DNA of 38,145 bases from an uncultured Deinococcales bacterium (lineage in GTDB: Bacteria > Deinococcota > Deinococci > Deinococcales > JAAFIG01): contig CAXTTL010000017.1 in the NCBI GenBank assembly GCA_964247135.1, positions 1 to 38,145 on the forward strand, given 5' to 3'. A model generated the notes under the pieces. The model made no database searches. It was not told where the DNA came from and worked only from the letters and a program-made list of their open reading frames with translations. Below, piece by piece: positions 4,236 through 28,953 of this stretch. The first letter of the stretch is position 1; each line of letters starts with the position of its first letter. Made by a program: the position numbers and the translations under genes.

Positions 4236-4274
4236 TGGGTGTTACCTCCGATTATGATTGTGTCGGGATTGGGT

Positions 4275-7200: not shown

Positions 7201-7520
7201 TTTGCGATGCCGTCGCGCCAGTTTTGAACATCCGATTGCACGTCTTGCAAGGCAATAAACTGTGCATCAATCTCGAGCGCATCCGCACCCAAGACCCGTT
7301 TCATCCCTGCCAGAGACACGGCAAGGTTGTTCAAGGGGTCGTCTGAACCAGACCACAACAGTTGTGCAAGCGTTTTACGGCGAGAACGTCCCTCGAGTGC
7401 CAGGTATGCCAGCAACGCTGCCCGTTTCGGTCCCAAGTCCAACAGTTTGCCGTCCCGTCGGATTTCAACAGGACCAAGAAAACACAATCGGACTTGCCCA
7501 GAAGACTGTGTGTGCGACAC
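4275..7520 (-). CDS. SARP/BTAD transcriptional activator with STAND-type AAA ATPase and C-terminal TPRs
   Basis: N-terminal ALLAYLAL...LAQLLW and FEEWL...ELGVEP (wHTH/BTAD); Walker A GEPGVGKT; Walker B LIWLDDLQWAD; GGNPL; TPR repeats. Confidence 0.9.
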   Translation of the reverse strand: MSHTQSSGQVRLCFLGPVEIRRDGKLLDLGPKRAALLAYLALEGRSRRKTLAQLLWSGSDDPLNNLAVSLAGMKRVLGADALEIDAQFIALQDVQSDVQNWRDGIAKRDPSIWDLHRGVLLEGLEVRDWAAGLGEEFEEWLYSRREEFETQWRTLASMIAATHLQATQYEKALPFLNLACGDVGPQEDASRRLILTLGALERSDEAIQVYTVLAQQQREELGVEPTARTRAALAAARNGAFESETMLAREWLHLEPGTNVVLAPLVGRQTELTMLDTLLEPSGTVRVPAVVLRGEPGVGKTRLAQALRERWLSNRHGGILFGGSVVRAALPLQTFDSAIRQLVQQHPAILDQMPTAWRDALARWMPDALNPTGRPNAPDLERLGVFEAIRALLDQEQPVLIWLDDLQWADALTLELVQHLITKPPRAGLAFVATTREQPHDSSHVGEFLRFVAQVQGRVHEVKPLDQIAIMELATALNQPDIDAAQLRAVSGGNPLHVLELLRADPDTQARQMQDLIDARLDVQPEVSQQTLEALGVLGDQSKVGLLQRVSGRSAEETATVLEQLSRVGLVQVGGAGVQFEHDLIRQAVLNRTHLARAGILHLRAARAQRQEALASAGHFWVARDLWEEADESVALRAFLEAGETHVLRGNLTDGLMWFDRALALTRSTIDRIQVLTKRSRMLERHGRYDEALQDLEAAEALSFETDVVTVAGVLNAKSGLLLNGLGDTVRGHETAKHTLAVLEGVIGQNTQAERARALTMLGWCCFLNREFAEAETWYREAIHIQRTLQQNHDLAGSLTELGSILIFTNRKAALSTLQEAIVLAEDTSNISVLGAAHDKLGIAYTREGKLDEAIFHAQKAIETRSVYGLEYVAGIWFNNLGNVHFERVDYQAAHEAYQHALKAKDTQHNSYFQVTILSNVAEVGLRLGLYVEVENALNQAFKLLAEQPMIALEADLRWFEGELAVVLNQTSKAITCYQKSVAFARQAKATERLQAALIRLARMEMSSDQAEQAHKLDSTPATIATQLFVANQFEAARGALASIADGYELMRLELDIGIVLKDFDLQSMARERLVQQFMLN

Positions 7521-14500: not shown

Positions 14501-15708
14501 GGACTGACTTGACCTGAAGCTTGTTGAACCGTGTGCGTGACTTCGTGCGCGAGCAATTCGTAACCAGAATTTGTGTTCGGTTCGTAAGTTCCTGTTTGGA
14601 AGAAAATATCCTTGCCCGTTGTGAAGGCAATCGCATTCACACTCTTGGCGAGTTGGTCAGCCTCTGTATCTGTATGCACCCGAACACTCTCGAGGTTGGT
14701 ATTCAATCCTGCCTCAAGTTGATGACGCACGTTTTCAGGTAATGGACTGCCAGCACCGAGCTTGGCTTTGATCTTCTCGCTTATGCCAGAGTTCGGCGTT
14801 GTTGGATTCGCTTCAGTTGTCGCCAATTGTAATGCTTGAGCTTGAATTCCATCATCAGTAAATAAAGCTTGCCGTTGCATCTCGAGATTCTGCTCACCCT
14901 CAGCAACCAGCCGTTGAATGCTCGAGTAATCGCTTTGCCTTGGATTGATGCCTGCCAGTAAACCGCCCAAGGCAAAATCTCGGTCTGCTTTACGTTGAAT
15001 GTTCAGAATCGCACTCGCCGCGTCTTTGGGGGTTAAACCACTCGAGAGACGCTGCGCGGTATATGTTTTCCCAAGGGCGAAGGCTTGCTGATCGGTTGGT
15101 TTGATGACACTTGGACCATCGAGAAATGGGGTACTCGGGTGGTTGTGTTGTGCTCGGAGCACTGGCAGTTCAGTGTTAAACCATTCAGCTCGAACAGTCA
15201 AGGCATTTTTAGGCTGGGCGGCTTGAGACGCCTGCGATTGCAAGCTCATACGGTCATCTACCAGGCGTTGCACCAACTCAGGAACGAGCGTCGCCTGATA
15301 CGAGGCTCGAGCATTTGCGGCTTGGATGCTCGAGTTTTTCAGACCCTCGAGATTCTTGCGTTGCACTGGGGATTTGATAAAACTCGAGAAAAAGTTTTGT
15401 TGTTTGGCATGAAGTTCTTGAGCACGTTGAACTCGCGCTTGTTGTTCTCGAGCAACAGCTTGATCTTGCAATCGTTGAACTCGAGCTTGCTCTTGAATAA
15501 CCGCTCGAGCTTGACGTTGAAGGCTGGCTTGTTCGGCATCACGCTGAATTCGAGCTTGACTTTGCTCGAGTTGGGCTTTCGCCCGTTGCAATTGCGCGGG
15601 TGTGGCGGGTTGAACTCGAGCCACACCACCAACAGTTGTTGCCAATTTCCTATTCTCAGGCTCGCGCTGAACAACCACATTGGGTTTTTTCAGGCGCTCG
15701 AGGGTCAT
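11521..15708 (-). CDS. DUF4157 (eCIS-core) domain polymorphic toxin with SH3/LysM-like, helical/hydrophobic and C-terminal toxin regions
   Basis: GSPLP...VRVHTD...AIAFTTGKDIFF...LLAHEVTHTVQQ (DUF4157, HExxH); many xQR motifs; WYRI...GETGFV (SH3b-like); YEIKPGDNAIDIA (LysM-like); His-containing C-terminus. Confidence 0.85.
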   Translation of the reverse strand: MTLERLKKPNVVVQREPENRKLATTVGGVARVQPATPAQLQRAKAQLEQSQARIQRDAEQASLQRQARAVIQEQARVQRLQDQAVAREQQARVQRAQELHAKQQNFFSSFIKSPVQRKNLEGLKNSSIQAANARASYQATLVPELVQRLVDDRMSLQSQASQAAQPKNALTVRAEWFNTELPVLRAQHNHPSTPFLDGPSVIKPTDQQAFALGKTYTAQRLSSGLTPKDAASAILNIQRKADRDFALGGLLAGINPRQSDYSSIQRLVAEGEQNLEMQRQALFTDDGIQAQALQLATTEANPTTPNSGISEKIKAKLGAGSPLPENVRHQLEAGLNTNLESVRVHTDTEADQLAKSVNAIAFTTGKDIFFQTGTYEPNTNSGYELLAHEVTHTVQQASGQVSPGIDASPQLETEARAKGTELAARFDPNAKPKPGSSFKNLENRAQPNSPLLSSQPVIHRMRLEAMQRSNLEVQLQREPSQTKTTPTAETNSKEPKGTPLNLRGAAFSKDANVKLRNSMDTSSKANIVQELKFGTTFLITEQITSWYRIKLDSGETGFVAAQNISVAPDAKATFYEIKPGDNAIDIASHYFKAKIGLDLRFYVGVLAKLNPKSIKMPSDQLAWGDESSVVAWKNANPMVGFYIWIPSQAYAEALKGTVNNGRLLDHPLEAAAEIGKSIVKKTIKELGGEEVIETLEAIGSNVRLVWDDPGAFMDNLQKSFSQGFHNFQDHFESHLEHGVMDWLHGALGAGFDIPKKADTAGLLSVGLQVVGLDYKNNLRPMLESSLPNGGLAQLEASGGVLQDVAKTGSLSPVISLVESKGSELMQMAAELPTTIMSSLKDFAIKSIITAGIKKLLTMLVPGGGLVQAAINIYNAVMFFIERAKQIGKFLKSLTSSFASIAKGDIKGAVQKIEDTLGNGFSLALGFLASAAGLTKIASSIKAALAKIQAPIKKVLERIAAWFSKMFSSLVKKVTPGSKPSTAVTPTSSGKTTTDPQKPVAPSSTVVSDHVLMKPIEINGDVTADGKAAVHNVWAEIKAGQPIMMMASTPKEIIAHLQDFKADARQKLAVGSPEFKTVSDQISASGKEVGKGIAQMRNVLKTNPRARNTSSDKVKSLPESKVSSDADLSKIAVNTLQSVKQHMEIAFPILNHAGMTVENLKQAVDLAGGIVQFMKGIAAGKTLSGIDRKKLGELWNQKTNGKLDHRAELKNMFRRVLSGNHEWIPTDLMLEVIDRDMEASKVGEIPEWIDLQNVLRTENKKVIFSASRAENHTFNNTRYAVFQGHVGSNIYLGDQDPITQKITYVQQFVPQSKFHNELRVAFRNSLSSIRTCKDTLKNVATDWIWDGASMPLSPLHPLLAWDDGGGTKIDIHQDPGFSQFKTHGKENHKEIFEIFK

Positions 15709-16011
15709 GCAAAAACTCTACCACAACGATTGCGAAACTATACTTGCAACATCGAAAGCGCTGTTGCTTACAGCCTCAATGTGGCGTACCTGCCAATGTT
15801 TTCGATTCGCTCTCGTTGAATCATCCGTTTGAAAAAATTCCTGATCTTTTCGGCACAAATTCCAGTAAGTTCAAACTTCTTTTCGTCAAAAGTTCGTGTA
15901 CAAGCAGATAGATCGCTTACAGTCAACCCAACACGCGAATCTCGAGGATTCGTGAAACCCATTGCCTCTCGTCAACAGGGACAGTGCAGGCTTTGCATTG
16001 TTGGGTGGGCT

Positions 16012-16896
16012 ATGAGCATCAAAGTCATGACCGAAGTTTGGGAAAGCTCGAGCACCAAAGGCGGAGCGCGTTTGGTCTTGCTGGCACTTGCCGATTACGC
16101 CAATGACGAGGGTTACTGTCATCCAGGAGTCGAACGCCTCGCCTTGAAATCTGCGCTGACCGAACGCAACGTGCAGTTCATCTTGCGTGATCTCGAGGCT
16201 AGAGGAGAATTGGTGACACTGCAACGGATGGGTCGAGGGCATGTCAACGCCTATTGGGTGTTGCCACCAAAAACCATCACGCGTTTGAGGTTCGAGGGCA
16301 AAACGGCGAAATCTTTTCACCCTTTTCAGGTGCTCGAGGAAAAGGTGAAAAGCGGTGCAGAAAAGGTGAAAACAAACGCACAAATGGTGAAATCTGAGAC
16401 CGAAAAGGTGAAGCCCACTTCACCCAGAACCGTCAAGAACCATCAAGAATCACCAAGAACCAACACCTCTAGCGAAGATACTTCGGAAATCGAAGCATCA
16501 CGAGATTCGACAGGCGAGAACCAACCCTCGAGCGTCCAGAACACGCAGCAGGGAAATCGCAACGGGCATTCTCAAAGTTCCGCGCCGCGTGCCGCCAATC
16601 GTGCTTGGATGACCTGGCTCGAGACCAATCAAATTCCTGAATGGCTCGAGTTGGAGGTTTGGCAGCGTTGGTTGCATGACCTTGATGAACGAACAAGTCG
16701 CATCACGTCTGGGCGACTCGAGGAACAACTCAAACGCCTCCAAGAACTGCATTTGATTGGTGAACCACAAGCCGCAATCGTGGCTCGAGCCATCGCCGGT
16801 GGCTGGGGAAACTTCTATCCACCACGAACCAAAACCAATCCGTTATCAACGCCAAAACCAGTCTCTAGTGGAGAACGTTATGGGAGGTACAGATGA
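16012..16896 (+). CDS. Phage/plasmid-type HTH replication initiator (lambda O-like architecture)
   Basis: N-terminal wHTH (LVLLALADYANDEGYCHPGVERLA), internal repeats, low-complexity linker, C-terminal helical domain; ATGA-coupled to a DnaC-like gene. Start moved to ATG 16012. Confidence 0.8.
   Translation: MSIKVMTEVWESSSTKGGARLVLLALADYANDEGYCHPGVERLALKSALTERNVQFILRDLEARGELVTLQRMGRGHVNAYWVLPPKTITRLRFEGKTAKSFHPFQVLEEKVKSGAEKVKTNAQMVKSETEKVKPTSPRTVKNHQESPRTNTSSEDTSEIEASRDSTGENQPSSVQNTQQGNRNGHSQSSAPRAANRAWMTWLETNQIPEWLELEVWQRWLHDLDERTSRITSGRLEEQLKRLQELHLIGEPQAAIVARAIAGGWGNFYPPRTKTNPLSTPKPVSSGERYGRYR
16339..16424 (+). repeat. Four iteron-like direct repeats with exact 21-bp period (putative origin)
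   Basis: GGTGAA cores at 16344, 16365, 16386 and 16407 (consensus GAAAAGGTGAAA); inverted TTCACC at 16316 and 16419. Confidence 0.7.
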
Positions 16897-17651
16897 ACGT
16901 TCAGGAACCGTCTCAAGCCGTCAAGAAGCCCATGAATTTCAGATCCAAAGACGAGTTGCCGACTTGTCCATGTTGTGGCGCAACCGCACTCGAGGGTCGT
17001 TGGAAAAGTGCTTTTGACCTGCAACACCAATGCAATTGCATCCTCGAGCGAGCCAGTGCCTATGAAGTTGGAGTTCAACGCTTGTGGGACAAGCGAAAAC
17101 GCTGTCTGAATTACCTCGAATCACTACCCACACGGTATCAAAATTACACCTACGATTTTCTCGAGCGCACGACTGGAAATGCTGAAGGTTTCGATGCCGG
17201 ATTGACGCTCGAGCTTGGTCAAACCTTGTACTTGTGGGGCAATCCTGGCAATGGTAAAACCCACCTCGCTTGCGCCATTGGCTTTGCCTTACTCGAGCGC
17301 ACAACGGTAACGTTTTGGAACATGGCGAACTTGTATGCGGTGTTGCGGGATTGTGTGGCTCGAGATGTACCACGCCCAAATTTGATCGCATCAGGAACGT
17401 TGATTTTGGATGACCTGGGCAAAGTCAAGACCAGCGAATTCGTTTACGAAACCCTGTACGCCTGTCTCGAGGCGCGTTGGTCGAATGGCAAAACCACGGT
17501 ATTCACTGCCAATCACAAACCTGGCATCGTTGCGGATCGTCTGACACCAGCCAGTTTGGACAGTGAAGCCGCCGATGCGATCCTCTCGAGGATGATTGCG
17601 GGGCGTGTGATCGAAGTCAGTGGCACAGATCGGCGCGAGGGCACGTCATGA
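16893..17651 (+). CDS. DnaC/IstB-like ATPase (helicase loader) with N-terminal Zn-binding Cys motif
   Basis: CPCC...CNC; Walker A GNPGNGKTHLA; Walker B LILDDLG; TVFTAN; ILSRM. Confidence 0.88.
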   Translation: MNVQEPSQAVKKPMNFRSKDELPTCPCCGATALEGRWKSAFDLQHQCNCILERASAYEVGVQRLWDKRKRCLNYLESLPTRYQNYTYDFLERTTGNAEGFDAGLTLELGQTLYLWGNPGNGKTHLACAIGFALLERTTVTFWNMANLYAVLRDCVARDVPRPNLIASGTLILDDLGKVKTSEFVYETLYACLEARWSNGKTTVFTANHKPGIVADRLTPASLDSEAADAILSRMIAGRVIEVSGTDRREGTS

Positions 17652-18082
17652 CCGCCCTGAACCCCGCAGCGATGGCTTGGCAGCGTTTCTCGAGGGGTTT
17701 GCCCGAAGAGGTGCGTTCGGTTGAGATGGCACTCCTCGGTGGGTTGCGGAGTTTCGAGCAATGGCGAACCTGTTTGGACACTGCGAATCATCTCGCCGCT
17801 CGAATCAATATCAACATCCACCGACGTGCGGCAGGCTCGAGTCCGGTGAATGTACCGTGGCGTTCGCTAAAACTCTTGGCAAATGGTGAATCCATGACTG
17901 CTGAAACCATCAGCAAGATGCTCGAGGTTCACGTGGACGTGGTGCGTCGCGCCATGAAAACCTTCCGAGGGAAAAACTGGGTGACAGCCAATGCCACCTA
18001 CACCAAAGAACAACCTCGAGTGTTTACCATCACCGCACTTGGTCAGAGTGCCCTCGAGCGTATTTGTGACGGGGTGCAATGA
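17648..18082 (+). CDS. Winged-HTH DNA-binding protein
   Basis: C-terminal MTAETISKMLEV...VRRAM...W...FTITALG; overlaps both neighbours. Confidence 0.65.
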   Translation: MTALNPAAMAWQRFSRGLPEEVRSVEMALLGGLRSFEQWRTCLDTANHLAARININIHRRAAGSSPVNVPWRSLKLLANGESMTAETISKMLEVHVDVVRRAMKTFRGKNWVTANATYTKEQPRVFTITALGQSALERICDGVQ

Positions 18083-18930
18083 TGCCCAAAAACGAAACCC
18101 GTTTGATCCCGATGGAACACATTCACCGTTCGATCAGCACCCCTCGAGAGCACCACGATGAGGCAGCCCTCGAGCGTTTGGCGCACTGGATTCGGCGGCG
18201 TGGTTTGTTGCAACCGATCCTTGTGCGGAATGTTGGAAAAAACGAATTTGAGGTGGTGGCGGGAGAACGTCGGTTTCTTGCCGCGCAACGGGCAGGCTTG
18301 ACCGAACTCGAGTGTCGGGTACGCGAGTATCCAGACCCGATCAAAGAATCAGACTTACCAGGCGATGTCTTTGCGCTCGAGGATGCACTGATCGAGAATT
18401 TGGTACGCGAAAACCTCTCTAAACTTGAGGAATCCGAAGCCATCCTCAACTTGGTCTGCTTGCACCTCGGGGAGCAACCAACTTTTGTAGTTGAGAGATT
18501 GGCAGCATTGCACCACCGCGCCAGAAAACACCGTCAACCGCTTTGCATGTGCGAGGACGATGACCGAATTCTCGACGTCTTTAAATTGCTCAATCTGATT
18601 GGGTGGCAAGCCTTTTACACCCACCGCGTTCCGCTTCTAAACTTACCTGATGACGTAAAACCCTTGGTTCACTGTCGTTGCACCAGTTATGCCCTGGCAA
18701 GGCGCATCGGCAAACTCGAGCCAGCACAACGCCGTACTGTGGTCGCTCGAGTCAAAACAGGGCAACTTAGAGGCACGGCGCTGAAACTCGAGTTGGACAA
18801 ACTGCTGGGCGTGACACGAAGACCATCACATCGGTTCAATCAAATTCGCCGCATCCTGCCCAAGCACCTCGAGAATCCAAAAGTCAAACAATCGCTTGAA
18901 AATCTCGAGCGGGAATTGGGGCTTTCATGA
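18079..18930 (+). CDS. parB: ParB/RepB/Spo0J family protein
   Basis: GLLQPILVR, VVAGERRFLAA (CTP-binding box), ALIENLVRENL. Confidence 0.9.
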   Translation: MMPKNETRLIPMEHIHRSISTPREHHDEAALERLAHWIRRRGLLQPILVRNVGKNEFEVVAGERRFLAAQRAGLTELECRVREYPDPIKESDLPGDVFALEDALIENLVRENLSKLEESEAILNLVCLHLGEQPTFVVERLAALHHRARKHRQPLCMCEDDDRILDVFKLLNLIGWQAFYTHRVPLLNLPDDVKPLVHCRCTSYALARRIGKLEPAQRRTVVARVKTGQLRGTALKLELDKLLGVTRRPSHRFNQIRRILPKHLENPKVKQSLENLERELGLS

Positions 18931-19478
18931 CCGAACGATTTGATTTGTCAGCCGCGATCACCGCCCTGAACGCTGGGGATGTGGTGGGGCGACGCAACTT
19001 TGAAGCCTACCGCGATTGGGCAAAACTCGAGCGGGATTGGCTCGAGCCAGAAGAACTCACGCACCTCGAGCGGGCGATGGAATTTGTGCGGAAACGCAAT
19101 CGGTCTTTGGTGGAAGCCCTCGAGCGCACCAAAAATCCGTCACGCGCAGTTGAAAACCAACCAATGGACATTGCCAATCTGAGTGCGATGGCTCGAGAAT
19201 TGCGGGCATTAAAACAAGTGAATGATGCCTCGAGACGCGACCAAAAAGCGTTGGTGGCACGACTGAAAGCCGAAGATGTTTACTACGACGCTTGGGAGGC
19301 TCGACTGCGATCTGCTGAAGAAGAATTTGAAACTTTGTGGAACGCGGTGGATGAATTGATTCGCCTCTCGAGTGCCAGTGCGCCGAGGTTGGAGAAGCTC
19401 GAGAAGCGGGTGGGGTTTCGCTTCTTGCGGCAGCAAAATCACTCTAAAGATTCAAAGCTCAACGATACTAATACCTAG
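18927..19478 (+). CDS. Hypothetical coiled-coil protein, 3' end altered by IS630 insertion
   Basis: ATGA-coupled to parB; stop codon lies inside the IS end. Confidence 0.65.
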   Translation: MTERFDLSAAITALNAGDVVGRRNFEAYRDWAKLERDWLEPEELTHLERAMEFVRKRNRSLVEALERTKNPSRAVENQPMDIANLSAMARELRALKQVNDASRRDQKALVARLKAEDVYYDAWEARLRSAEEEFETLWNAVDELIRLSSASAPRLEKLEKRVGFRFLRQQNHSKDSKLNDTNT

Positions 19479-20191
19479 CTAACGAAGTTTTGAGACTTTA
19501 TTTCAGGATACAAACGCCTCAACTTGATCCGCGCATCCGAAGTCCGAAACTGCCAATTAATTCGTACCTGTGCAGCATTCCGCTTCACCGACCATGCTTG
19601 TGCCTCACGTTCCAAACAGACCAAATTCTCAATCCGACGATGCAAACATTGCGACGACAACGCAGACAACTCAATCTCTGCCATATCCAACCAACTCGCA
19701 TGCTCAGGCGTGTAATGCCACTCGAACTTACGAGCGATAGTCCGCGCCAATTCTGGCTCAAATGCCTTGTACAATGCTCCAAGACCATGTGTGGCAAGGT
19801 TATCCGTCACCAACACAATCTTGTCAGCCTCAGGGTAATCCTCAAACACCAATCCTTTGAGAATCTCTGCCAACTCGAGTTGCGTATGATTCTCTTTGAC
19901 CCAGACGCGACGCTTTCCTACAAGCGGCTCGACGGCCAGGAAAACATGACCAACCCCGTTGCGTTCGTACACGTAATCCTGACGACTTGGTTGACCCGGT
20001 TTCATTGGAAGACTTCCGTCTGGTGTTCCATGCAATTCTTTTAAGGCTTCATCAAGGCACACCACAGGATGTGCCGGATCATAAGGGCGAGCATAAACAT
20101 CGAGTACATCCTCCATTTTTGCAACAAAGTTCGCGCTTGGACGAGCAATACACCAGCTTTTCACCTGCCACGGTTTAAGCTCGTTTTTTTT
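19475..20191 (-). CDS. IS630 transposase OrfB (DDE), joined by -1 frameshift at an A8 run
   Basis: VVCLDE, LVTDNLATH, HYTPEHASWLDMAEIE; the A8 run at 20184-20191 gives KKNELKPWQVKSWC in the -1 frame. Confidence 0.88.
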   Translation of the reverse strand, partial: KKNELKPWQVKSWCIARPSANFVAKMEDVLDVYARPYDPAHPVVCLDEALKELHGTPDGSLPMKPGQPSRQDYVYERNGVGHVFLAVEPLVGKRRVWVKENHTQLELAEILKGLVFEDYPEADKIVLVTDNLATHGLGALYKAFEPELARTIARKFEWHYTPEHASWLDMAEIELSALSSQCLHRRIENLVCLEREAQAWSVKRNAAQVRINWQFRTSDARIKLRRLYPEIKSQNFVS

Positions 20192-20616
20192 AGGCGTTTA
20201 TACACTGCGACATTGCTCAACGCATCCACGTAGCCGAGCGTGACCATTTGTTCAGCCAGCAATCGGAGTGTCCAACGTTTACGACCTTCGGGTGGTTCAC
20301 TGCACGCGAGGAGGACCAGTTTGGCTTCAAGATCACCCGTGATTTTGGGTGGTGCTCCAGTCCGTGGTCGGTCATGAAGGGCATCATGAAGTCCGTTCAG
20401 CGTAAAGGCACGACATATGCGAACCACGCGGTCTTTACTGCAATCGAGGAGTTGAGCAATCTCACTCTGGGTTTTATGTTTTGGTTGGTTGCGATCTGCG
20501 TAGAGCAACATTTGTGCTCGAGCGATGACTCGAGAGTGGTGTTTGCCTCTACGAGTGTAGTTGAGGAGTTGACTGCGTTCTTCGGGGGTCAGGCGAACTG
20601 GGAGGTGTTGGCTCAT
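20161..20616 (-). CDS. IS630 transposase OrfA (HTH)
   Basis: RAQMLL...RPRTGAP...LACSEPPEGRKRWTLRLLA. ATG 20616 is inside the IS; the ORF-track start (20742) lies outside it. Confidence 0.9.
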   Translation of the reverse strand: MSQHLPVRLTPEERSQLLNYTRRGKHHSRVIARAQMLLYADRNQPKHKTQSEIAQLLDCSKDRVVRICRAFTLNGLHDALHDRPRTGAPPKITGDLEAKLVLLACSEPPEGRKRWTLRLLAEQMVTLGYVDALSNVAVYKRLKKTSLNRGR

Positions 20617-20738
20617 ACTTAAGTGTGCTACAAAATCATGAAATTTTGTTAGCAAGGTACTAACCAACTTCATCAAAATAAGAGAGAAAAACCAAGATGA
20701 CATTTCTGGGTGTTTTAAGGCACAAAAGGATTTGAAAT

Positions 20739-23171
20739 TCAAGTTGGTTTTACCCGAAGGCGAAGTTTGGTGCGAATTTGTTCTAATTTTTCGGATTTAT
20801 TTTTTGCGTCGTTTTCATTTTCCCCTTTGATCGAATTTAAGTGCTCGATCAATCTGTTGAGAAATTCTTCAAGGTCGTCCAGCACCCATCGTGGTACTGG
20901 GATTTTTTTGATTGCAATTCCGAGCGATTCGCTTCGGCTTTGCACGTATTGCGTTTTTTCGGGGTCAAATAAACTGATTAAGAATTTAATCATAAGTCGA
21001 TCAAGTTGAACAATAGAAGAATCAATTTTTTGCAAACACCGCAAACTGGCTAACTTCCAGCATCTCACTGCACTTGAAGTTCTACCATAGCCGAGAAAAG
21101 CAAGCCCTAAATTTGACATTGCGTGGTAATCTGCGGGATTTTCCGTGTTGGCGGACATGAAGCAAGTCATTGCTTGAAACACATGGTTTTTTTTGAGAGA
21201 TGTGTCTTTGGAAGCAATTCTTCCAAGTTGATGCCAACCCATCCAATTGAAGAAAATGTCGCGTTCTCCAGGCGAAAGTTTGGATCGCTGGTGCGGTGAC
21301 ATCAAACGAAGTTTTGTGATGACATCTTGGTATGCTTTCGCAACACTATCAAAATTATCAGTCTGCGGTTCCATAGTTCTCTTACTCAGGAGTTCACTTG
21401 TGGCAGCTAAATTAAATCTAGCGTGGATCAAGTACGGATTAAATGATATCGCCTGACGGAACGCTTGTTGTGCATTTTCCAAATGACTCCAATAATCTGA
21501 TTTCATTTGTTCGATTGGCAAACCAGTCTTTTGGCGCTCGAGTTCTGCCATTTTAGAATGCCAGATTCCGAGGCACAAAAATGCAAGCGGCTGAACCTCA
21601 TCGAGCAACACGGCTTCAAAGCATTCGGAGCTTTTTTGATAACACATATTCTGATCTTTTTTATCGCTAGAGATCGCCCCCATACTGAGGTAAGCCAAGC
21701 CAATGCGGCAAAGTAAATGTTGGGGTGCGTTGTATTCAGGTACATGTTTTGCCAACCACAAACAATATTTCATGGCTGATTCAAGACCTTCAACCAGTGC
21801 GGCATAGCTTTCCGAGGCAAGCACATCGTTCTCTTCCAGAAACCGCACTTGATCGGGATTCAGATCGGTAGCATGACGTAAATAACCCTCGAGTGCCAAG
21901 GAATAAACCTCGAAGGCGGAATATTTGCGATCCAAAAGTAAAGTTGGGTCTATGTGACTTCCAGGCAGCGCCAAAGAAGCCCAACGCCATTCTCCACTGA
22001 AACTGGCGGCAATCTGACCGCCCAGTTCCTTAACCAAATCGAGGGTACTTGCATTGTTATGCTGGTCACGGGTGCCTTGAAAAGCTTGAACATCAGTCCC
22101 TTCGACCCGAACCACGATATGCAGTTCTTTTTCTTCAATTCGTACCGAACCAATAATTGACCGTGCTGGTTTTCCAAAAGGCCACAACCGTTTCAAGACG
22201 ACAAACAACGTACCAATCTGCAAACTTGTGCTGGCAGCCGTGACTGTTCCAATTCCGACCAAGCGATCAGTCAAATCCGCCGTTGCAGGTCGCAAATCAA
22301 GAAACCAACCCGAACGTCGGGAGAAATCCCCCAACAAAGCTGGATGCTCGTGTAGACGTTTTATACGATGAAGCTCTGCCACCAGCGAATCTGAAATACT
22401 TCGGCTTAATGTTTGGTCTTTGTTGCCATCCATCGAAAAGGGTAAAACAAATACCCCAGCATCTTGTACCGTAACCCATGTCAGCAGGATAAACACAGTC
22501 CCCAGCGCAATAAACACCACCACAAGTCCAAGTTGTGCTTCGACTGACTTTCGCAAGGTTTCCAAGACTTCTGCGATTCTCGAGTTTGAATCTGAGGCTA
22601 CGCCTGTTGTCCCATTGGTTGTGTTTGAGGGGGGTGATGTACTTTTGTTATTTGTTTGTTCAGTGGTTTTGCTCAACGCGGGTGAACTTGGGCTTGGGGT
22701 TGACTTTTTGGTGACGTTCAAAGAACCCAAGCCCAATGCAATTGAACATACGAAGGCAACCAATAGCAGCGTAGGGCGGATCAGCGGCAACCCATTCAGT
22801 ATGGCTCGACGCAACCGCAGAAAACGAAAATGAAATGTTGACCAATAGAAGAAGACATATGGAATTATGATGCTTAAAAGTAATCCAACTTCAACATAAG
22901 GGTTTTGCTTGTTCAAAAACTTAAGTGTATTTTCCCAGATCTGTGACCAATTAATCGCAATGTAAACGCTATGAATTACAAACAACACCATCGCACTACA
23001 AAGCAAAAATCCTAGCAAAAGCCAGATGCCATATCGTCGCCGAAAATCTCGATCAAATCTGAATCGTTCAATTAAATACATGACCTGAACTCGGAACTCA
23101 TATCCATTTACCACATTTGAATACATCCATTCTTTGAATTGATTTGGAAATTGCTTTTTAGGCGCTGTCAT
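20739..23171 (-). CDS. Membrane protein (about 4 N-terminal TM helices) with C-terminal TPR-like region
   Basis: Hydrophobic segments in aa ~48-235; TPR-like AFRQAISFNP...ARFNLA and AMSNLGLAFLGYG; ATGA overlap with the upstream gene. Confidence 0.75.
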   Translation of the reverse strand: MTAPKKQFPNQFKEWMYSNVVNGYEFRVQVMYLIERFRFDRDFRRRYGIWLLLGFLLCSAMVLFVIHSVYIAINWSQIWENTLKFLNKQNPYVEVGLLLSIIIPYVFFYWSTFHFRFLRLRRAILNGLPLIRPTLLLVAFVCSIALGLGSLNVTKKSTPSPSSPALSKTTEQTNNKSTSPPSNTTNGTTGVASDSNSRIAEVLETLRKSVEAQLGLVVVFIALGTVFILLTWVTVQDAGVFVLPFSMDGNKDQTLSRSISDSLVAELHRIKRLHEHPALLGDFSRRSGWFLDLRPATADLTDRLVGIGTVTAASTSLQIGTLFVVLKRLWPFGKPARSIIGSVRIEEKELHIVVRVEGTDVQAFQGTRDQHNNASTLDLVKELGGQIAASFSGEWRWASLALPGSHIDPTLLLDRKYSAFEVYSLALEGYLRHATDLNPDQVRFLEENDVLASESYAALVEGLESAMKYCLWLAKHVPEYNAPQHLLCRIGLAYLSMGAISSDKKDQNMCYQKSSECFEAVLLDEVQPLAFLCLGIWHSKMAELERQKTGLPIEQMKSDYWSHLENAQQAFRQAISFNPYLIHARFNLAATSELLSKRTMEPQTDNFDSVAKAYQDVITKLRLMSPHQRSKLSPGERDIFFNWMGWHQLGRIASKDTSLKKNHVFQAMTCFMSANTENPADYHAMSNLGLAFLGYGRTSSAVRCWKLASLRCLQKIDSSIVQLDRLMIKFLISLFDPEKTQYVQSRSESLGIAIKKIPVPRWVLDDLEEFLNRLIEHLNSIKGENENDAKNKSEKLEQIRTKLRLRVKPT

Positions 23172-25510
23172 TCATTTTCTCCACTACGAGTGAGATGTGC
23201 GCCAATCTGATCAATAGTGTATGACTCGAGGAAATCGGCTTGCCCACAAATGCCCATTGCATCAACATCTATCATTGGATCAAGCACATTGACCTCACCC
23301 TGACCTGCCGCCCAAGCGCTCTCCCATAAGACCGCCAGTAAGTGCGTTCCGTTTTGCATGACTTTAATCGTGTTTGTCCCAAATTTTGTCCAGAAGAATT
23401 CCGCTCGAGCTTTTGGTTTGCCATCAAAATCGATGAAGGCTTGAACAATGTCTGTTGGTGACAGCAAGCTGAAGGTGGATCGCATCAGTTCGATGGTTTT
23501 TTGTGCGGCGCTGAATCCGTCGGCAATCAATTCGTCGGCGTTGACTTTTAGTGTGCGTTGAAGCGCATCAAGAATTTCACCCCGATGGGCGTTAACCATA
23601 TCATCTTCATAAGCCGCATGTACCCCCTTGCCCAGTGGCTCTGTCACGTCTTCATCTACACCATTGCGGTGATGTACGGTGCGGGTGACGTGTCTGAATG
23701 GGTCGCCATCGTGCAGGTACGAAACGTGCAAGGGTTGGCACGAATCACCCAGGTAATGCGTTAAGACTCCCGCAGCACACACAAATTCTGGGGCTTTGCC
23801 TTCTCGGGCAAAACGCACCATCTCATCAAAAATTTGCCAGACCCGAAACGGTAGCAATCCACGGTGGACTTTTGAAATCTTTTCCCCAGTGAGGATATCG
23901 GTCACAGATTCGTAGAAGTCATTCCAAAAATTTGGATCAATGTTTTTTGGGTTTTCGCATAGGGTCAGTAAGTCTTCACCAACCTCGTTTTTTTGATCCA
24001 TGTCAGCAAAATGGTTTGGTCCTTCAAAGGGTCTTGTATGACCTTGATGACTGAGCCTTGGTTTCCAATAGAAATCTGGTACATCCGCCAATGGCACGTT
24101 TGCCTCATCACCAAGCCCTTTGAATTCGCCGTTGCGGATGGTGCCGTCATCGGGTGCAATCAAGGTCGCATTGTTTTTCATCAATGCCGCGAGTTTGGAA
24201 TCTTGACTCGATAGTGCCCCAATCACGCTGGTGGCGATGGAAAAGTGTCCTACGGCTCCCCAAGTGTTCGGTTGGTCAAGGTTCCAATCGCGCACCAGGT
24301 CAACATCAAGCAGGTTGCAAACAGTGCTGAGGCAAGTTGCCAAAGCGTAAGACTGCGAATTTCCTGCACTACCAAGCAGGTTTGCGCCCCACTGCATGCC
24401 AATGGGGAGATACGATGCTGGCTTGGCAGAGGCTTGAATTTGGTCTCTCGTCTCTGAGGCTAATGGCTGAGGCTCGAGCAAAAACAGCGTTCCTGAGTCT
24501 CCTGGGTGGGTGCTGAATGTTGGTTGGCTATCGGAATGTTCAGAATCATTGTGATGATTAACAGAACGAGGACCGATAAAAAGATCGGCAATGTAATCGA
24601 AGCCGCCCTGAGATTTGTAACGGTAAAACAGTGCCTGAATTTCGCCTTTCATGATGCCGCTGGCAGCACCATGCCCTTGAACCCAACAACCAATCAATGC
24701 CAGACTGAGGCTGTAAACTGAAACGTCAAACATTGGTCCCATTGCGCCAATGCCCTCGATTTGTGCGGTCCAATCCTCGAGCCGATCCACATCAATCAAA
24801 CCCACATCGAGATTGACGAACACATCGTTGCCGACAAAACCAGGGTACAATTCCATGAATTTCATTCGGGTAAGTTGTTTGGCGGCAGTTACCCCAACCC
24901 GTTCAATGCGTCCTTGGCGTTGGGTGTACACGACCTCGCCTGTTTCGCCAGTCACATGCCTGTTAGTAAGGGCATACGTTTTGTGACCATCGCGCACCAG
25001 GCAGGCAATCGTTGCCACATGCCGCTGTCCTTGTACGGATGCCAGAATTGGACGACCCCCACCAATGTTGTTGAGTGGAAAGTTGATGGGGGCGGCAGGA
25101 GGCGCAACTGCCTCTCGGGGTGCTTTGATCACACAAACGGGAATGCGTCGCCCATCAGGAAGGTATAGGGTTTTGGGTACGATCTGGTCAGGATTGTACC
25201 CACCACCATCGTAAAAAGCGCTGGGCGGTATCCATTGGTTGACAAACACCAGAATTGCGGGCCACGAATACGGACGTACTTCAGAATTCTCGAGGGTGCG
25301 TTCGTCTGTTCCATGTACTTTCCCTGCGCCCTGATGGTCAGGCCAACTGTCGTCAATGCGGATTCGGTAGCGTCCTATCGCGGTGGCAACCACGTTGGGG
25401 TGGCGCATCAGGTGAATGTGATACAGGTCTTGGGCATCAAGGAGGTCTTTGAGTGAAAGTTGATCGTAGTCGTTTAAGCTGGTTTGATAGGCACGCAAGT
25501 CCATATCCAT
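23168..25510 (-). CDS. Trypsin-like (Nal1-type) serine protease fused to an S1/P1 nuclease / Zn-phospholipase C domain
   Basis: Triad LTNRH185, D235VGLI, GDS339G; then W417GAVGH, ADVPD, HFADMD, HYLGDSCQPLH, HAAYE. No signal peptide. Confidence 0.82.
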   Translation of the reverse strand: MDMDLRAYQTSLNDYDQLSLKDLLDAQDLYHIHLMRHPNVVATAIGRYRIRIDDSWPDHQGAGKVHGTDERTLENSEVRPYSWPAILVFVNQWIPPSAFYDGGGYNPDQIVPKTLYLPDGRRIPVCVIKAPREAVAPPAAPINFPLNNIGGGRPILASVQGQRHVATIACLVRDGHKTYALTNRHVTGETGEVVYTQRQGRIERVGVTAAKQLTRMKFMELYPGFVGNDVFVNLDVGLIDVDRLEDWTAQIEGIGAMGPMFDVSVYSLSLALIGCWVQGHGAASGIMKGEIQALFYRYKSQGGFDYIADLFIGPRSVNHHNDSEHSDSQPTFSTHPGDSGTLFLLEPQPLASETRDQIQASAKPASYLPIGMQWGANLLGSAGNSQSYALATCLSTVCNLLDVDLVRDWNLDQPNTWGAVGHFSIATSVIGALSSQDSKLAALMKNNATLIAPDDGTIRNGEFKGLGDEANVPLADVPDFYWKPRLSHQGHTRPFEGPNHFADMDQKNEVGEDLLTLCENPKNIDPNFWNDFYESVTDILTGEKISKVHRGLLPFRVWQIFDEMVRFAREGKAPEFVCAAGVLTHYLGDSCQPLHVSYLHDGDPFRHVTRTVHHRNGVDEDVTEPLGKGVHAAYEDDMVNAHRGEILDALQRTLKVNADELIADGFSAAQKTIELMRSTFSLLSPTDIVQAFIDFDGKPKARAEFFWTKFGTNTIKVMQNGTHLLAVLWESAWAAGQGEVNVLDPMIDVDAMGICGQADFLESYTIDQIGAHLTRSGENE

Positions 25511-25665
25511 ATGGGTGTCCTTTCGGGATCACAATTGATCGCGGTTAATTTGGTGCTGTGATAAACTCGGCTTCGTAAGCGCTTTTCAAAGACCGCCTTG
25601 ACAAAGTAAAATCACGTTTCCAAATTGGTTCAAAGATCAAGATCAAAGCATTGAAAAATTCGTGT

Positions 25666-26685
25666 TTAGAAGGTGATCGTCCAACCACGATGTCGGGCTT
25701 GGGTTTTGCTGTACGAAACCCCATGAATCTTGATGCCGTTGGGGTCAAGCAGCGTGATGCTGTCTCCTTTGTTCGAGAGCATCGGTTCTGGCAGTTCAAT
25801 CAGCGCCGTTTCACCTGCCTCGAGCATTCCCGTCAGCAGTTGCGGCGATTGTTGACGGTTCAAGAGCGACCATCCCTCGAGGTCCACCGCTTTGGTTGAG
25901 GTGTTCAGCAATGAAACTGTTTCTGCCTCACTCTGAACTGGGTTGGGAACAGCCGCGACAATCAGCACAACACCATCAGGAATGTTGCGTTGCCGTCCTG
26001 GTTGCGGTTCGGTGACCGGACGCACACCTTTCAAGGCTTGACCCGTCTGGTCATCGGTGTGCCAGGCTTGGGTTTGGAATTTTAAGAACACCGCCACCCA
26101 GTGGTTCTGGCTGGGAAACTCAAAGATCAGTCCACCATCCTGCCAGACGCCATTGTCCTTGCTGAATTGCCCTCGAGGATTGCCTTGGTTCATGTGAATG
26201 TCATGCACACCCGTGCTGGGTTCGGGATGAAAATAACTTTTTTGCGGCGGTTTTCCAGGCGCGTCTTGCCAGCGTTCACCAAACGCATAAACCCGAGCCT
26301 GCGGGTCGCCGCTGGCGCGTTGCACCCAGAATTCGATTTTGTCGTTCAGATCGTTGTCGGCTCCCGGTTTGGTGAAGGGCAGCGGCTTCATCTGGCTGGG
26401 TTCAAACAGGTTGCCACGAATGAAATCCAGCGCCACACCACCCGCTTTGGAAGGCAGGGCATGAAAAGCATCGCTCAGGGTTGGCAGTGTCTCGAGCAAA
26501 TGGTGATCAAAACCATCGACGATCAGGTATTCAACCTCACTGCCATCGGCACTTTGGACGTTGATCGGCACTCGAAACCGCACATCGCCAGTCTCGAGCA
26601 GCAATTGAAAGTGATTCGAGTTTTTCATGGCAAGTTGATGCTCGAGAATTCTTCCTTTGACCAGACCATAATGATTGAGCGGCAT
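25666..26685 (-). CDS. YukJ/DUF2278 family protein with C-terminal lamin-tail-like domain
   Basis: MPLxxYGLVKG, LDFIRGNLF, GVHDIHMNQGN, WQDGG, FLKFQTQAWHTD; C-terminal PNP...ETVSLLN...VDLEGWSL...LSNKGDSITL. Confidence 0.85.
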   Translation of the reverse strand: MPLNHYGLVKGRILEHQLAMKNSNHFQLLLETGDVRFRVPINVQSADGSEVEYLIVDGFDHHLLETLPTLSDAFHALPSKAGGVALDFIRGNLFEPSQMKPLPFTKPGADNDLNDKIEFWVQRASGDPQARVYAFGERWQDAPGKPPQKSYFHPEPSTGVHDIHMNQGNPRGQFSKDNGVWQDGGLIFEFPSQNHWVAVFLKFQTQAWHTDDQTGQALKGVRPVTEPQPGRQRNIPDGVVLIVAAVPNPVQSEAETVSLLNTSTKAVDLEGWSLLNRQQSPQLLTGMLEAGETALIELPEPMLSNKGDSITLLDPNGIKIHGVSYSKTQARHRGWTITF

Positions 26686-26805
26686 CTTTCCTCCTTGGAG
26701 AGCAGTTGAGGTTACGAGAGTTCGACTGGCGTCAAAATACTGGCGTTAAAGCAATAAAACGTATTTTGGGATTTGCAAATACAATTTTTAAGAGTTTGTC
26801 ATATG

Positions 26806-26855
26806 AACGTCGATAAAACATCGATTTTCTTACCCCTTTAAAATTGACTCAGAAA
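26806..26855 (-). repeat. 50-bp site, copy A of a distant inverted pair
   Basis: AACGTCGATAAAACATCGATTT-N16-TTGACTCAGAAA; 39/50 ungapped identity to the reverse complement of 34851-34900. Confidence 0.8.
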
Positions 26856-26932
26856 AAGTGAGCCTTCTACACTCAACTGTAATTCGGAAACTGAGTTTGG
26901 TTGGTGTTGATACTCGAGTCGGAGGATCACCC

Positions 26933-27697
26933 ATGCTCAAACCCCTGATCGCCGTTGTGATTGCAGTCTTTTTCCTGTCCACCTCGAGCTTCTCTCAAAG
27001 TCTTGGCGGCAATATCACCACTATCTTTTACGCCGATGATGTACAAGCCAAGCCAGGAAAACTCGAGATTGACCCTGCCTCTCACGCCATTGTGCGGTTC
27101 TACGATGAGGTTAAATTCGCCTTCTCGAGACGTTCTGACATTCTCAAAGCCCTGCCCAAAGGCAGTGATGTTGTGCTGTACGCCATGACCGAGAAAGCCG
27201 AAACCGATTTGTCCGTGCTGGTGGATGGCAAATGGCATTTTTTCAGCGTTAGCGTTCGCAAGGGTGTGGGTTTGCACTATTACGAAATCAAAAAGCGCGA
27301 GACGGTTTCAACAACCATCCCAACATCGGATAACAACGCGGTTATCCCCACGCCCAAACCCGCCTCACCCTCGAGTGCGTCGCTGCTTGCGCCCGATTGG
27401 ATACGCTGGAATCTCAACCCAATTTTCAGCTCGAGCAATGAAATTCGGGTCGCGTACACCCTCGAGAACACTGGTAAGCAAAGTGTAATTGCTCCTCAAA
27501 AAGACCTGCAAATTTTGCGCGACGGTCAAGCGCTCAAGTTCAGGCTCGAGAACACGGGCGAGATCAAGCTTGACCCTGGCGAGGTCTTCAACGGCATCAT
27601 CCGCATCAATGCGCCTCCTGGCACTCTGAAATTCCAGTGGAATTTGCACGTGGCGGGTTCGACCAAAACCTTCAGGCTCGAGGCAGAACTGAAATGA
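26933..27697 (+). CDS. Secreted beta-rich protein, putative conjugation component (TraK/VirB9-like)
   Basis: GGAGG RBS, signal peptide, two beta domains separated by a P/S/T linker; coupled to the next gene. Family call is from context only. Confidence 0.5.
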   Translation: MLKPLIAVVIAVFFLSTSSFSQSLGGNITTIFYADDVQAKPGKLEIDPASHAIVRFYDEVKFAFSRRSDILKALPKGSDVVLYAMTEKAETDLSVLVDGKWHFFSVSVRKGVGLHYYEIKKRETVSTTIPTSDNNAVIPTPKPASPSSASLLAPDWIRWNLNPIFSSSNEIRVAYTLENTGKQSVIAPQKDLQILRDGQALKFRLENTGEIKLDPGEVFNGIIRINAPPGTLKFQWNLHVAGSTKTFRLEAELK

Positions 27698-28953
27698 AAC
27701 GCTTTGTTGTGTTGCTGGTTTTGCTGATCTCGAGCGTCAGCGCTCAAGTGGTCGGACGGTTGTCGTATATCGAACCCGAGTCTGCCCCAGAAATCGTGAC
27801 CCGAGGTGATCTTCGGCGCTTGCCGACGGGATTTGTTGAACTGCTTCACGATGCAAGGCTCGAGCAGTGCAAACGTCAGAATTACGAGCGTTGTTCGACT
27901 TACGAGTGGAGCGTGCCATTCATGCCTGAAAGCATCGCGCAAAAGGTTGAACGCGGTCTGTCCGAAGCTTGGAATCGCTTTGATTCCCGCACCTATTGGC
28001 GCATCAACACGGCGATCAATGGCGATGGCGCGTACTGGTGGAATTGCGTCAACGCCAGCTACAACTACGATGGGATTCTAGGCATCTGGGATCGGAATAC
28101 TTCCGTCTACCTGCCAGCTTCTGAATTCTGCGATGACCTCAATCCAGAGTACGCGTTGTGGATTCCAACGTTTTGCTCGAGCATGGATGCGTTAACGCGG
28201 TGGGATCGGATTGCGACGATCTTCGCTCAAGCCTATGCCCACGCCATGACGCACTATTACCTGGATTACTGGAAAGATGTGCTCGAGGTGATCATCAAGA
28301 ACATGCCGCTCGCCTTGTGGTGGGATGGTGTGTACCCCGTGCTACCAGGTCAAACGAGTGGCTTGGTGTTGCAACCGATCATTGGATTGCCCAACCCACA
28401 GCAGTACCTCGAGTTGGCTCGAGATGCCCAGAGCCGTGATCTTCGTGGTTTTGCCTATGTGCTGGCACGATACCCGTTTCTGAATTTGCTGGGCAATGCC
28501 ATCACCAATCAAGTGCAAGAATTGGTGCGGCGTTATCCAATCGAATCCGAACAGGATGGTCAGCCAGGCTTGCAGAACCTCGAGCCGCTTAAAGCTGGAC
28601 TCTCGAGACGGGAAGGGATTTTCACGCGATCAAACCAATGGGCAACCTACCCTTGGTTGTTCAGCTCGGATGGACCAGAACCCAAAGGGAGCAGTGGGGC
28701 TGCCACGCAATACGAGTACGCGGGTGTTGGTCATGCTGTCTTTTTCGCGGCACAATCGAAATTCATCCTCGAGTTCAGCCCTCGAGTGCCGATCTTCTGG
28801 CGGATGTGTTTCACCGAAAGTTTCCCGCCTATTCCAATTCCGATCCCTGTGCCAATGCCGATGGTTCATGCCGTCTCGAGGGTGGACACGCAGTGGTTGA
28901 GTGTCCCTGAAGGTTATCCGATTCCTGGGGTGAAGGGCGTGCCACTGTTTTGA
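27694..28953 (+). CDS. Secreted Cys/Trp/Pro-rich protein, putative conjugation component (TraU-like)
   Basis: Signal peptide MKRFVVLLVLLISSVSA; several Cys; ATGA overlap. Family call is tentative. Confidence 0.45.
   Translation: MKRFVVLLVLLISSVSAQVVGRLSYIEPESAPEIVTRGDLRRLPTGFVELLHDARLEQCKRQNYERCSTYEWSVPFMPESIAQKVERGLSEAWNRFDSRTYWRINTAINGDGAYWWNCVNASYNYDGILGIWDRNTSVYLPASEFCDDLNPEYALWIPTFCSSMDALTRWDRIATIFAQAYAHAMTHYYLDYWKDVLEVIIKNMPLALWWDGVYPVLPGQTSGLVLQPIIGLPNPQQYLELARDAQSRDLRGFAYVLARYPFLNLLGNAITNQVQELVRRYPIESEQDGQPGLQNLEPLKAGLSRREGIFTRSNQWATYPWLFSSDGPEPKGSSGAATQYEYAGVGHAVFFAAQSKFILEFSPRVPIFWRMCFTESFPPIPIPIPVPMPMVHAVSRVDTQWLSVPEGYPIPGVKGVPLF

Follow-up and report, generated by a model that had tools for sequence, protein, structure and literature searches.

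A NAL1-type serine protease fused to an S1/P1-nuclease/phospholipase-C-fold domain in an uncultured Deinococcales bacterium: a candidate self-processing zymogen

Introduction

The window, i.e. the whole stretch of DNA analyzed here, is the complete 38,145-bp contig C17 of a metagenome-assembled genome (84% complete) of an uncultured Deinococcales bacterium. It carries three head-to-tail open reading frames (ORFs) on the minus strand, denoted genes A, B and C, and the product of gene B joins a predicted serine protease to a predicted zinc enzyme domain in one chain. In the superfamily of this second domain, the free N-terminus of the first residue of the enzyme, Trp1, helps to build the metal site. 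How, then, could B provide such an N-terminus from within its own chain, and do genes A and C, which an earlier note on this DNA had grouped with B as a defense system, take part? The analysis presented below favors gene B alone as the functional unit and describes its product as a probable self-processing zymogen, in which the protease would cut the chain directly before W417, the counterpart of Trp1.

Gene B and its family

B is a member of a large, unnamed and mostly solitary bacterial family. At E≤1e-3, 2077 homologues were found among the 8000 candidates scored, and the best 120 of them match B over its full length with 55–70% identity. In a library clustered at 50% identity, the family has 2282 (E≤1e-3), 1284 (E≤1e-10) or 579 (E≤1e-30) representatives. 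The records come from Planctomycetota, Alpha- and Gammaproteobacteria, Acidobacteriota, Gemmatimonadota, Verrucomicrobiota, Chloroflexota, Bacteroidota, Myxococcota and others, and their titles point mostly to soil. Among the matches listed, the names, where given, are hypothetical, with the exception of one plasmid gene named 'S1/P1 Nuclease'; NCBIfam returned no matching model for B or for A.

The residues singled out in the earlier note are all found in B: H185 (in TNRHV), D235 (in LDVGL), S339 (in GDSGT), and the segment T416-W417-G-A-V-G-H422. In the aligned family, the H185/D235/S339 triad, W417, H422, D479, H500, D503, D505, H595, H631 and E635 are invariant (77/77), and H585, D589 and D476 are retained in 76 of the 77 sequences. 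This conservation is far above chance.

The protease domain

The N-terminal half of B (residues 1–416) is predicted to be a chymotrypsin-fold serine protease of the type of rice NARROW LEAF 1 (NAL1), with which it shares the H/D/S triad, a WGG-type strand and homology along this half. The assignment is based on the Pfam model Nal1_C (27.3 bits, cut-off 26.1), on a search of the PDB with the profile of the B family, which reached NAL1 at E 4e-15 over about 310 profile positions, and on the Foldseek comparison of the B model with NAL1 (E 8e-22, TMt 0.70–0.79). A PDB search with the single B sequence gave nothing useful (best E 0.13). The triad proposed earlier is intact throughout the 77 aligned members; one row among 79 representatives has a histidine in the column of D235.

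The full-length AlphaFold2 (AF2) model of B has a pLDDT of 88.6 and a pTM of 0.60. NAL1 acts on other proteins within a hexameric cage, and a trimer-of-dimers or hexamer is needed for a competent triad, according to PMC12012508; since its triad is competent only in the hexamer, assembly may also serve as a switch for B. A complex prediction with paired copies of B residues 1–416, made with no controls, scored 0.00 (mark 0.42) and is uninformative either way on oligomerization.

The zinc domain

With the whole 780-residue model, Foldseek returned protease matches only, and the zinc domain was therefore folded alone, starting at W417. The resulting AF2 model (pLDDT 95.3, pTM 0.94) points to the fold of S1/P1 nucleases and zinc-dependent phospholipases C (PLCs). 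Its VIA comparison gave Z scores of 15.8–18.0 to all 29 entries of the superfamily (PLC, alpha-toxin, S1, P1, SmNuc1, TBN1 and AtBFN2; 217–238 residues aligned, rmsd 3.0–3.9), with the next best match at Z 3.5. In Foldseek, the 29 top listed rows (ranks 1–36) all belong to the S1/P1-PLC superfamily, at E values from 1e-3 to 8e-2. Residue 1 of the model, W417, aligns in VIA to chain residue 1 of 1ah7, 1ak0, 1ca1 and 3w52 (B. cereus PLC, P1 nuclease, alpha-toxin and AtBFN2), and to residues 21, 27 and 26 of S1, SmNuc1 and TBN1, respectively, which are taken to be the mature N-termini. In the model, W417 is thus structurally equivalent to the mature N-terminal Trp1 of the superfamily.

Sequence families lead to the same fold. 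In the whole B protein of the window, the Pfam families S1-P1_nuclease and Zn_dep_PLPC are matched below threshold (E 0.03). Among the C-terminal domains of the family, S1-P1_nuclease is the best family and is matched at E≤0.1 by 76/77 (best E 2.5e-12), and Zn_dep_PLPC by 73/77 (best E 4.7e-6). When the PDB sequences are searched with the family profile, only AtENDO2 (E 0.02) scores below E 0.1 apart from NAL1. No match of B to Pfam Het-C was returned. The fold scores in VIA are tied for nucleases and PLCs, and Pfam leans to S1/P1.

The candidate zinc ligands, of a site that may hold three zinc ions, are W417, H422, D476 or D479, H500, H585, D589, H595, H631 and E635, all near-invariant. H422 would be the second ligand, by the P1-type spacing W-x4-H. 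Fold and ligand conservation (76–77 of 77) agree with the claim, made previously from the sequence, of an S1/P1-PLC-type domain with His/Asp ligand motifs beginning at W417. A Kyte-Doolittle scan found no segment above the hydropathy threshold in B or in A, and therefore no signal peptide or transmembrane helix is indicated for either protein. The N-terminus of B has no hydrophobic segment (maximum KD19 1.44), in line with the earlier reading of B as lacking a signal peptide, and W417 is preceded by 416 residues of protease.

The interdomain junction

In the full-length model the pLDDT falls below 50 only at residues 1–12 and 411–417, so that the junction is the sole internal stretch of low confidence. 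It was compared in 154 sequences, namely 77 translations from genomic loci and 77 of 79 representatives of at least 690 residues (P0386 and P0320, whose C-terminal parts are degenerate or different, were left out). Position 417 is Trp in 153 sequences and Phe in one. The residue before it, the presumed P1 residue, depends on the clade and is Y (81), T (48), S (9), F (5), V (5), I (3) or R (3).

In proteases of the chymotrypsin fold, a wall of the S1 pocket is formed by Trp215-Gly216. If residue 416 enters the S1 site of the fused protease itself, a large P1 residue is expected together with an open pocket, and a small one with an occluded pocket. In B, the invariant W374-G375 of the WG strand are followed by residue 376 (Ala in the window), which is Gly in 84 of the 86 sequences whose P1 is aromatic; of the 68 with T, S, V, I or R at P1, 65 have a residue other than Gly. 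Among 779 columns, 376 is the best single predictor of the P1 class (accuracy 0.968, mutual information 0.81 of 0.99 bits); the second best is a linker residue (accuracy 0.877). On a FastTree phylogeny built without columns 376 and P1, each trait changes 8 times, and the supported branches give 6 independent contrasts, of which about 5.3 are concordant and none opposite. The tree of 77 sequences gives 3 contrasts, 2 of them concordant. The coupling of P1 and 376 across the tree is suggestive.

The next columns that track P1 are 412 and 413 in the linker and, in the protease domain, the N147-N148 pair of the PLNNIGGG motif, positions that may make additional subsite contacts with the linker.

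As the first 77 sequences have only T, S or Y before W417, it was also considered that a hydroxyl group at this position replaces the amino ligand in the uncut enzyme. This was rejected because F, V, I and R also occur there in the wider sampling. Such a variable chemistry speaks against a substitute metal ligand and in favor of a P1 side chain that fits residue 376.

No stand-alone zinc domain starting at the Trp was found in the 10 shorter proteins examined of the 120 listed. Six of them retain protease-derived residues before the Trp and four begin inside the zinc domain; all 10 are truncated gene calls.

Proposed mechanism and alternatives

B would be made as a soluble, signal-less proenzyme composed of the NAL1-type protease (residues 1 to about 410), a short flexible linker and the zinc domain (417–780). 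Because translation cannot give a cytoplasmic protein an initial Trp, the chain would be cut by the fused protease itself, C-terminal to residue 416 (T in the window, replaced by Y, F, S, V or I in relatives). The reaction may occur in cis or from one subunit of an oligomer to another, and may be a constitutive maturation step or one that is triggered, e.g. by assembly. The cut would expose W417 and switch on a zinc phosphodiesterase, which may act on nucleic acid, nucleotides or phospholipid. The free Trp N-terminus, which secreted relatives obtain by removal of a signal peptide or propeptide, would be obtained by B through its own cut. We infer the cleavage, the protease responsible for it and the activation from the folds of the two halves, the equivalence of W417 and Trp1, the conserved active sites, the disordered junction and the P1-376 coupling, and consider it probable that B, with its gene as the functional unit, is a self-processing zymogen of this kind.

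A close precedent is the PC-PLC of Listeria, which is an inactive proenzyme; one residue added before W1 abolishes its activity, and of the W1 substitutions W1F alone keeps it, as described in PMC10576769. The sole residue other than Trp at position 417 of the B family (n=154) is Phe, the same as in the tolerated W1F. The earlier suggestion that the internal Trp marks a zymogen to be cut before W417 is in this way strengthened in silico, by the alignment with Trp1, the low-confidence stretch 411–417, the covariation and the Listeria case.

Several points weigh against it. The zinc domain of the window lies under the Pfam cut-offs (17.0 vs 29.5 bits for S1-P1_nuclease and 16.4 vs 26.8 bits for Zn_dep_PLPC); since its relatives score well, it would therefore represent a divergent sister clade. 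The assignment of residues to metals is provisional, made by motif spacing and not by residue-level superposition. Likewise, W374-G375-x376 is assumed, by resemblance of the motif, to correspond to chymotrypsin 215–217. The pairing of 376 with P1 has exceptions, as locus L078 combines T with Gly, and two sequences combine Y with Ala. The covariation amounts to 8 changes, with a sign test that is not significant (median p 0.06, range 0.03–0.125). Finally, B has neither a sensor domain nor a conserved partner as the source of a trigger.

The best-surviving alternative is that no self-cleavage takes place and that B is an uncut bifunctional protein, with a protease acting on other substrates, as NAL1 acts on FZP and TPR2. 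We regard this as unlikely, and hold the same opinion of its corollary, a zinc domain that keeps its activity with the Trp inside the chain or has a binding or regulatory role. NAL1 does cleave other proteins, PMC12012508 contains no wording of autocleavage or self-cleavage, and the AF2 model of the uncut chain shows each domain well folded. Against it, all solved relatives begin at the Trp, the Listeria enzyme (LmPC-PLC) is inactivated by a single residue before W1 (PMC10576769), W417 is near-invariant exactly at the domain boundary in a disordered linker, and the residue before it is of no constant chemical type.

It is still less probable that another protease, of the cell or of a phage, cuts before W417 and that the fused protease has a different task, e.g. 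degrading the released enzyme or other targets. Precedents exist in the Listeria PC-PLC, matured by the separate protease Mpl (PMC10576769), and in the metallo-β-lactamase (MBL) nuclease zymogens of Hachiman and AVAST, cut by a partner protease (PMC12799240). Nevertheless, no conserved protease gene was found among the neighbors of B, the zinc domain of the B clade did not turn up on its own, and it is with a residue of the fused protease that P1 co-varies.

Genes A and C and the organization of the locus

The three genes are co-oriented, as noted before, and the last two are joined by ATGA, in which the stop codon of B overlaps the start codon of C; 155 nt separate A from B (Table 1). The IS630-type transposase begins right at the stop codon of C, directly downstream of it, and marks the edge of the block; its insertion may have removed whatever lay after C. 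A scan of 20400–27000 for promoters and terminators gave chance levels (6 vs 6.7 expected and 7 vs 8.0 expected, respectively).

Table 1. Positions of the genes, protein segments and adjoining element discussed in the text (numbering of the window).
Feature	Coordinates	Strand	Description
Gene A	25666..26685	-	339 aa; DUF2278 (YukJ-like) and lamin-tail domain (LTD); local neighbor, not a family-wide partner of B
Gene B	23168..25510	-	780-aa fusion protein; central feature; large unnamed family
Gene C	20739..23171	-	810-aa membrane protein with TPR-like C-terminal part; near-orphan
B residues 1-416	24263..25510	-	predicted NAL1-like chymotrypsin-fold serine protease (Pfam, profile, Foldseek)
B triad codon H185	24956-24958	-	
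B triad codon D235	24806-24808	-	
B triad codon S339	24494-24496	-	
B residues 411-417 (DQPNT↓W)	24260..24280	-	linker and predicted scissile bond; T416 as P1, W417 as P1'
B residues 417-780	23171..24262	-	predicted S1/P1-nuclease / phospholipase-C-fold domain, candidate trinuclear zinc site (AF2 model, structure comparison, Pfam)
IS630-type transposase	19475..20742	-	two overlapping ORFs (20161-20742, 19475-20164); Pfam HTH_32/HTH_29 and DDE_3

Protein A consists of DUF2278 (Pfam E 5e-71) and the lamin-tail domain (E 1.6e-9), an architecture that is also present in bacterial and Ascomycota clusters of the ESM Atlas (scores 0.97; 20–46% of the members carry the LTD). The HDIHMNQG motif reported for it is present, with its first residue at position 161. 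A PDB sequence search gave no solved relative of A, and in the DUF2278/YukJ literature DUF2278 is mentioned once, in an unrelated context; the YukJ papers listed (10/48) include no study of function. Protein C gave only matches to tetratricopeptide repeats (TPRs) in Pfam, all below threshold, and is TPR-like by language-model features (0.92–0.94); the Kyte-Doolittle scan shows about four hydrophobic segments in it (48–66, 95–113, 135–153 and 217–235). Among 5.8 billion clustered proteins it has a single real homologue, P0122 (37% identity); two further matches are weak and of TPR type.

The conservation of the neighborhood, named in the earlier note as a check on the trio, was examined in 160 loci with relatives of B. 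These are the best 80 of 225 relatives (from 320 candidate stretches in contigs of one genome per species) and the best 80 of 191 relatives (from 316 stretches in metagenomes); at least 2 kb upstream of B are covered in 96 loci and at least 2 kb downstream in 110. By tblastn, C is absent from all 160 loci, and so is its homologue P0122. A was found near B in 2/160: in L016 the match lies 8.5 kb downstream of B, and in L147 it is weak (24–28% identity), divergent, and about 0.7 kb upstream. When all ORFs of 100 aa or more located up to 4 kb from B were clustered, no recurrent neighbor of any kind emerged; the top cluster is limited to 11/160 loci, which belong to a single, closely related clade with ordinary synteny. 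A separate clustering of 80 loci had the same outcome.

Of 40 related genomes, one has B (G008 of the same bacterial family, 73% identity) and another has a fragment of it. G008 is also the only one with A, which lies 1.2 kb upstream of B and is separated from it by a DUF2252 gene. C was found in none of the 40, G008 (91% complete) included. The A-B arrangement in G008 amounts to a block shared within a single bacterial family and not to a conserved system.

The DUF2252 gene adjoins B homologues in 3/160 further loci, in differing orientations and once frameshifted, and is a weak recurrent neighbor (occurrences listed: L085 2564–3652; L122, L127, L031).

That A, B and C form one defense system, in which C senses infection, the protease of B frees the nuclease or phospholipase and A is a partner, is therefore highly improbable: the shared orientation, the ATGA overlap, the A and B homologues close together in G008 and a contig rich in mobile or conflict-type genes are outweighed by the lack of any conserved co-occurrence of the trio. 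The sensor role suggested for C and the partner role suggested for A find no support. In PADLOC, with which the earlier note proposed to see whether the trio is unassigned, no model matches C, A is matched weakly, in its LTD part only, and B is matched by the model PDLC03017. In the explanation that we consider best, and probable as a whole, B alone is the functional unit, with A and C as passengers of this locus or additions specific to the lineage. Apparent operon partners are thus shown to lie outside the conserved unit.

Comparison with known systems

The zinc domain of B shares its fold with Listeria PC-PLC/PlcB (which has Mpl as its protease) and B. cereus PC-PLC (Z 17.4–17.6, W417 placed on W1), and is about 100 residues longer than the zinc PLCs. 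The activation proposed for B, by removal of what precedes Trp1, is that of the zinc PLC proenzymes (PMC10576769). However, zinc PLCs are secreted, with a propeptide of 14–26 residues and a separate protease, whereas B has no signal peptide and carries a protease of 416 residues on the same chain. The S1/P1 nucleases (P1, Aspergillus S1, SmNuc1, AtBFN2/ENDO2 and TBN1) likewise have the same fold (Z 15.8–17.4) and an N-terminal WGxxGH motif. They are secreted or extracytoplasmic and their Trp is exposed by removal of the signal peptide, unlike in the signal-less B.

As for the protease, NAL1 lacks a zinc domain and breaks down other proteins in its hexameric cage (PMC12012508), whereas B carries the zinc domain. 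The protease-gated anti-phage effectors resemble B in that a latent toxic hydrolase is licensed by site-specific proteolysis (PMC12799240). Effectors licensed in this way comprise the MBL nuclease with a trypsin-like protease in Hachiman, AVAST, Lamassu and DRT, and the alpha/beta-hydrolase and Pepco, as well as EACC1 (PMC12799240 and bioRxiv 10.1101/2025.11.14.688446). These modules are made of two genes tied to a sensor (STAND, Hachiman, others) and the cut removes gating loops; B, in contrast, is one solitary polypeptide with no sensor, and both its protease clade and its effector fold are different. The S1/P1-PLC fold is absent from the ten modules surveyed in bioRxiv 10.1101/2025.11.14.688446. 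Tox-HET-C, a toxin in conflict systems, is the third branch of the PLC/S1-P1 superfamily, as stated in PMC3482391; unlike B, HET-C toxins are exported cargo and are processed by other proteases.

A fusion of a NAL1-like or trypsin-like protease with an S1/P1-PLC domain is not described in the literature searched, outside of which lie supplements and subscription journals. Zinc PLCs and nucleases that depend on Trp1, and hydrolases licensed by proteases, are already known; a covalent fusion that would make its own N-terminal Trp was not found in print in this search. The alphavirus capsid protease is a viral chymotrypsin-fold enzyme that makes a single cis cut at its own C-terminal end, with no zinc enzyme downstream. 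The topology of B may be similar, as the cut would fall 6–10 residues after the last element of the protease domain.

If the cut is real, B would offer a clean model of zymogen activation in cis or gated by oligomerization, with P1 and 376 as a specificity pair open to experimental swapping. It would also give a bacterial context to NAL1, an agronomically important plant protease, and possibly add an effector type to the prokaryotic cell-death and defense enzymes.

A possible role in defense

The PADLOC-DB model PDLC03017, labeled 'trypsin-like', matches whole B at E 2.3e-39 and its halves at E 4e-27 (profile positions 12–301) and E 1e-11 (431–576). As both halves are matched, the architecture has presumably been collected for some known or candidate system. 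The model is not named in the retron type XI paper, the UG/Abi paper or the listing of the PADLOC papers.

The patchy presence of gene B in the 40 related genomes counts for a defense role, as does the fact that the licensing of effectors by proteases is by now well established (PMC12799240; bioRxiv 10.1101/2025.11.14.688446). Some B loci adjoin toxin-antitoxin genes, an anti-phage dGTPase, Tn7-like genes, or an integrase with IS91, and gene B of the window lies close to IS630, on a contig with many mobile and conflict-type genes. Against such a role count the other B loci beside housekeeping-like genes and the solitary nature of B, its presence on 5/72,556 plasmids and 0/50,697 phages, and its unusually good conservation across phyla (55–70% identity for the best 120 homologues). 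No infection sensor was found fused or linked to B, as there is no extra domain in the protein and no recurrent neighbor in the 160 loci.

A role of B in triggered death or in defense is a minor, although real, possibility. A more specific proposal is that B is a widespread one-protein suicide or immune effector, in which signal-driven assembly leads to a self-cut at [T/Y]↓W and the cytoplasmic nuclease or phospholipase kills or arrests the cell; we hold this to be speculative and rather doubtful. If true, it would represent a new class of protease-gated effector that needs no separate sensor gene, and plant NAL1 would gain a bacterial ancestor with a defined self-substrate.

Other genes of the contig

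Elsewhere on the contig, a 1081-aa STAND-type protein (BTAD, AAA_16/NACHT-like ATPase and TPR; 4275–7520, minus strand) is encoded immediately upstream of a 557-aa S8 subtilase (2562–4235), and the pair (2562–7520) resembles protease-associated conflict systems. The 1395-aa protein encoded at 11521–15708 (minus strand) has an eCIS_core match (E 1.6e-27) and a sub-threshold SH3_3 match (24.5 vs 27 bits), and is similar to polymorphic toxins or to the cargo of contractile injection systems. A mobile-element-like block at 15829–20742 comprises an HTH_36 protein, an IstB/DnaC-like ATPase, a ParB_N protein and the split IS630 transposase.

On the other side, a few kb from gene A, lies a mutagenesis cassette (29006–34584) with genes for SRAP (an SOS-response peptidase), an ImuB-like Y-family polymerase and a DnaE2-like error-prone Pol III alpha subunit. 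Between the two, at 26858–28953 on the plus strand and divergent from A, are two ORFs of 279 and 438 aa with no Pfam match, whose products have hydrophobic N-terminal stretches and may be secreted.

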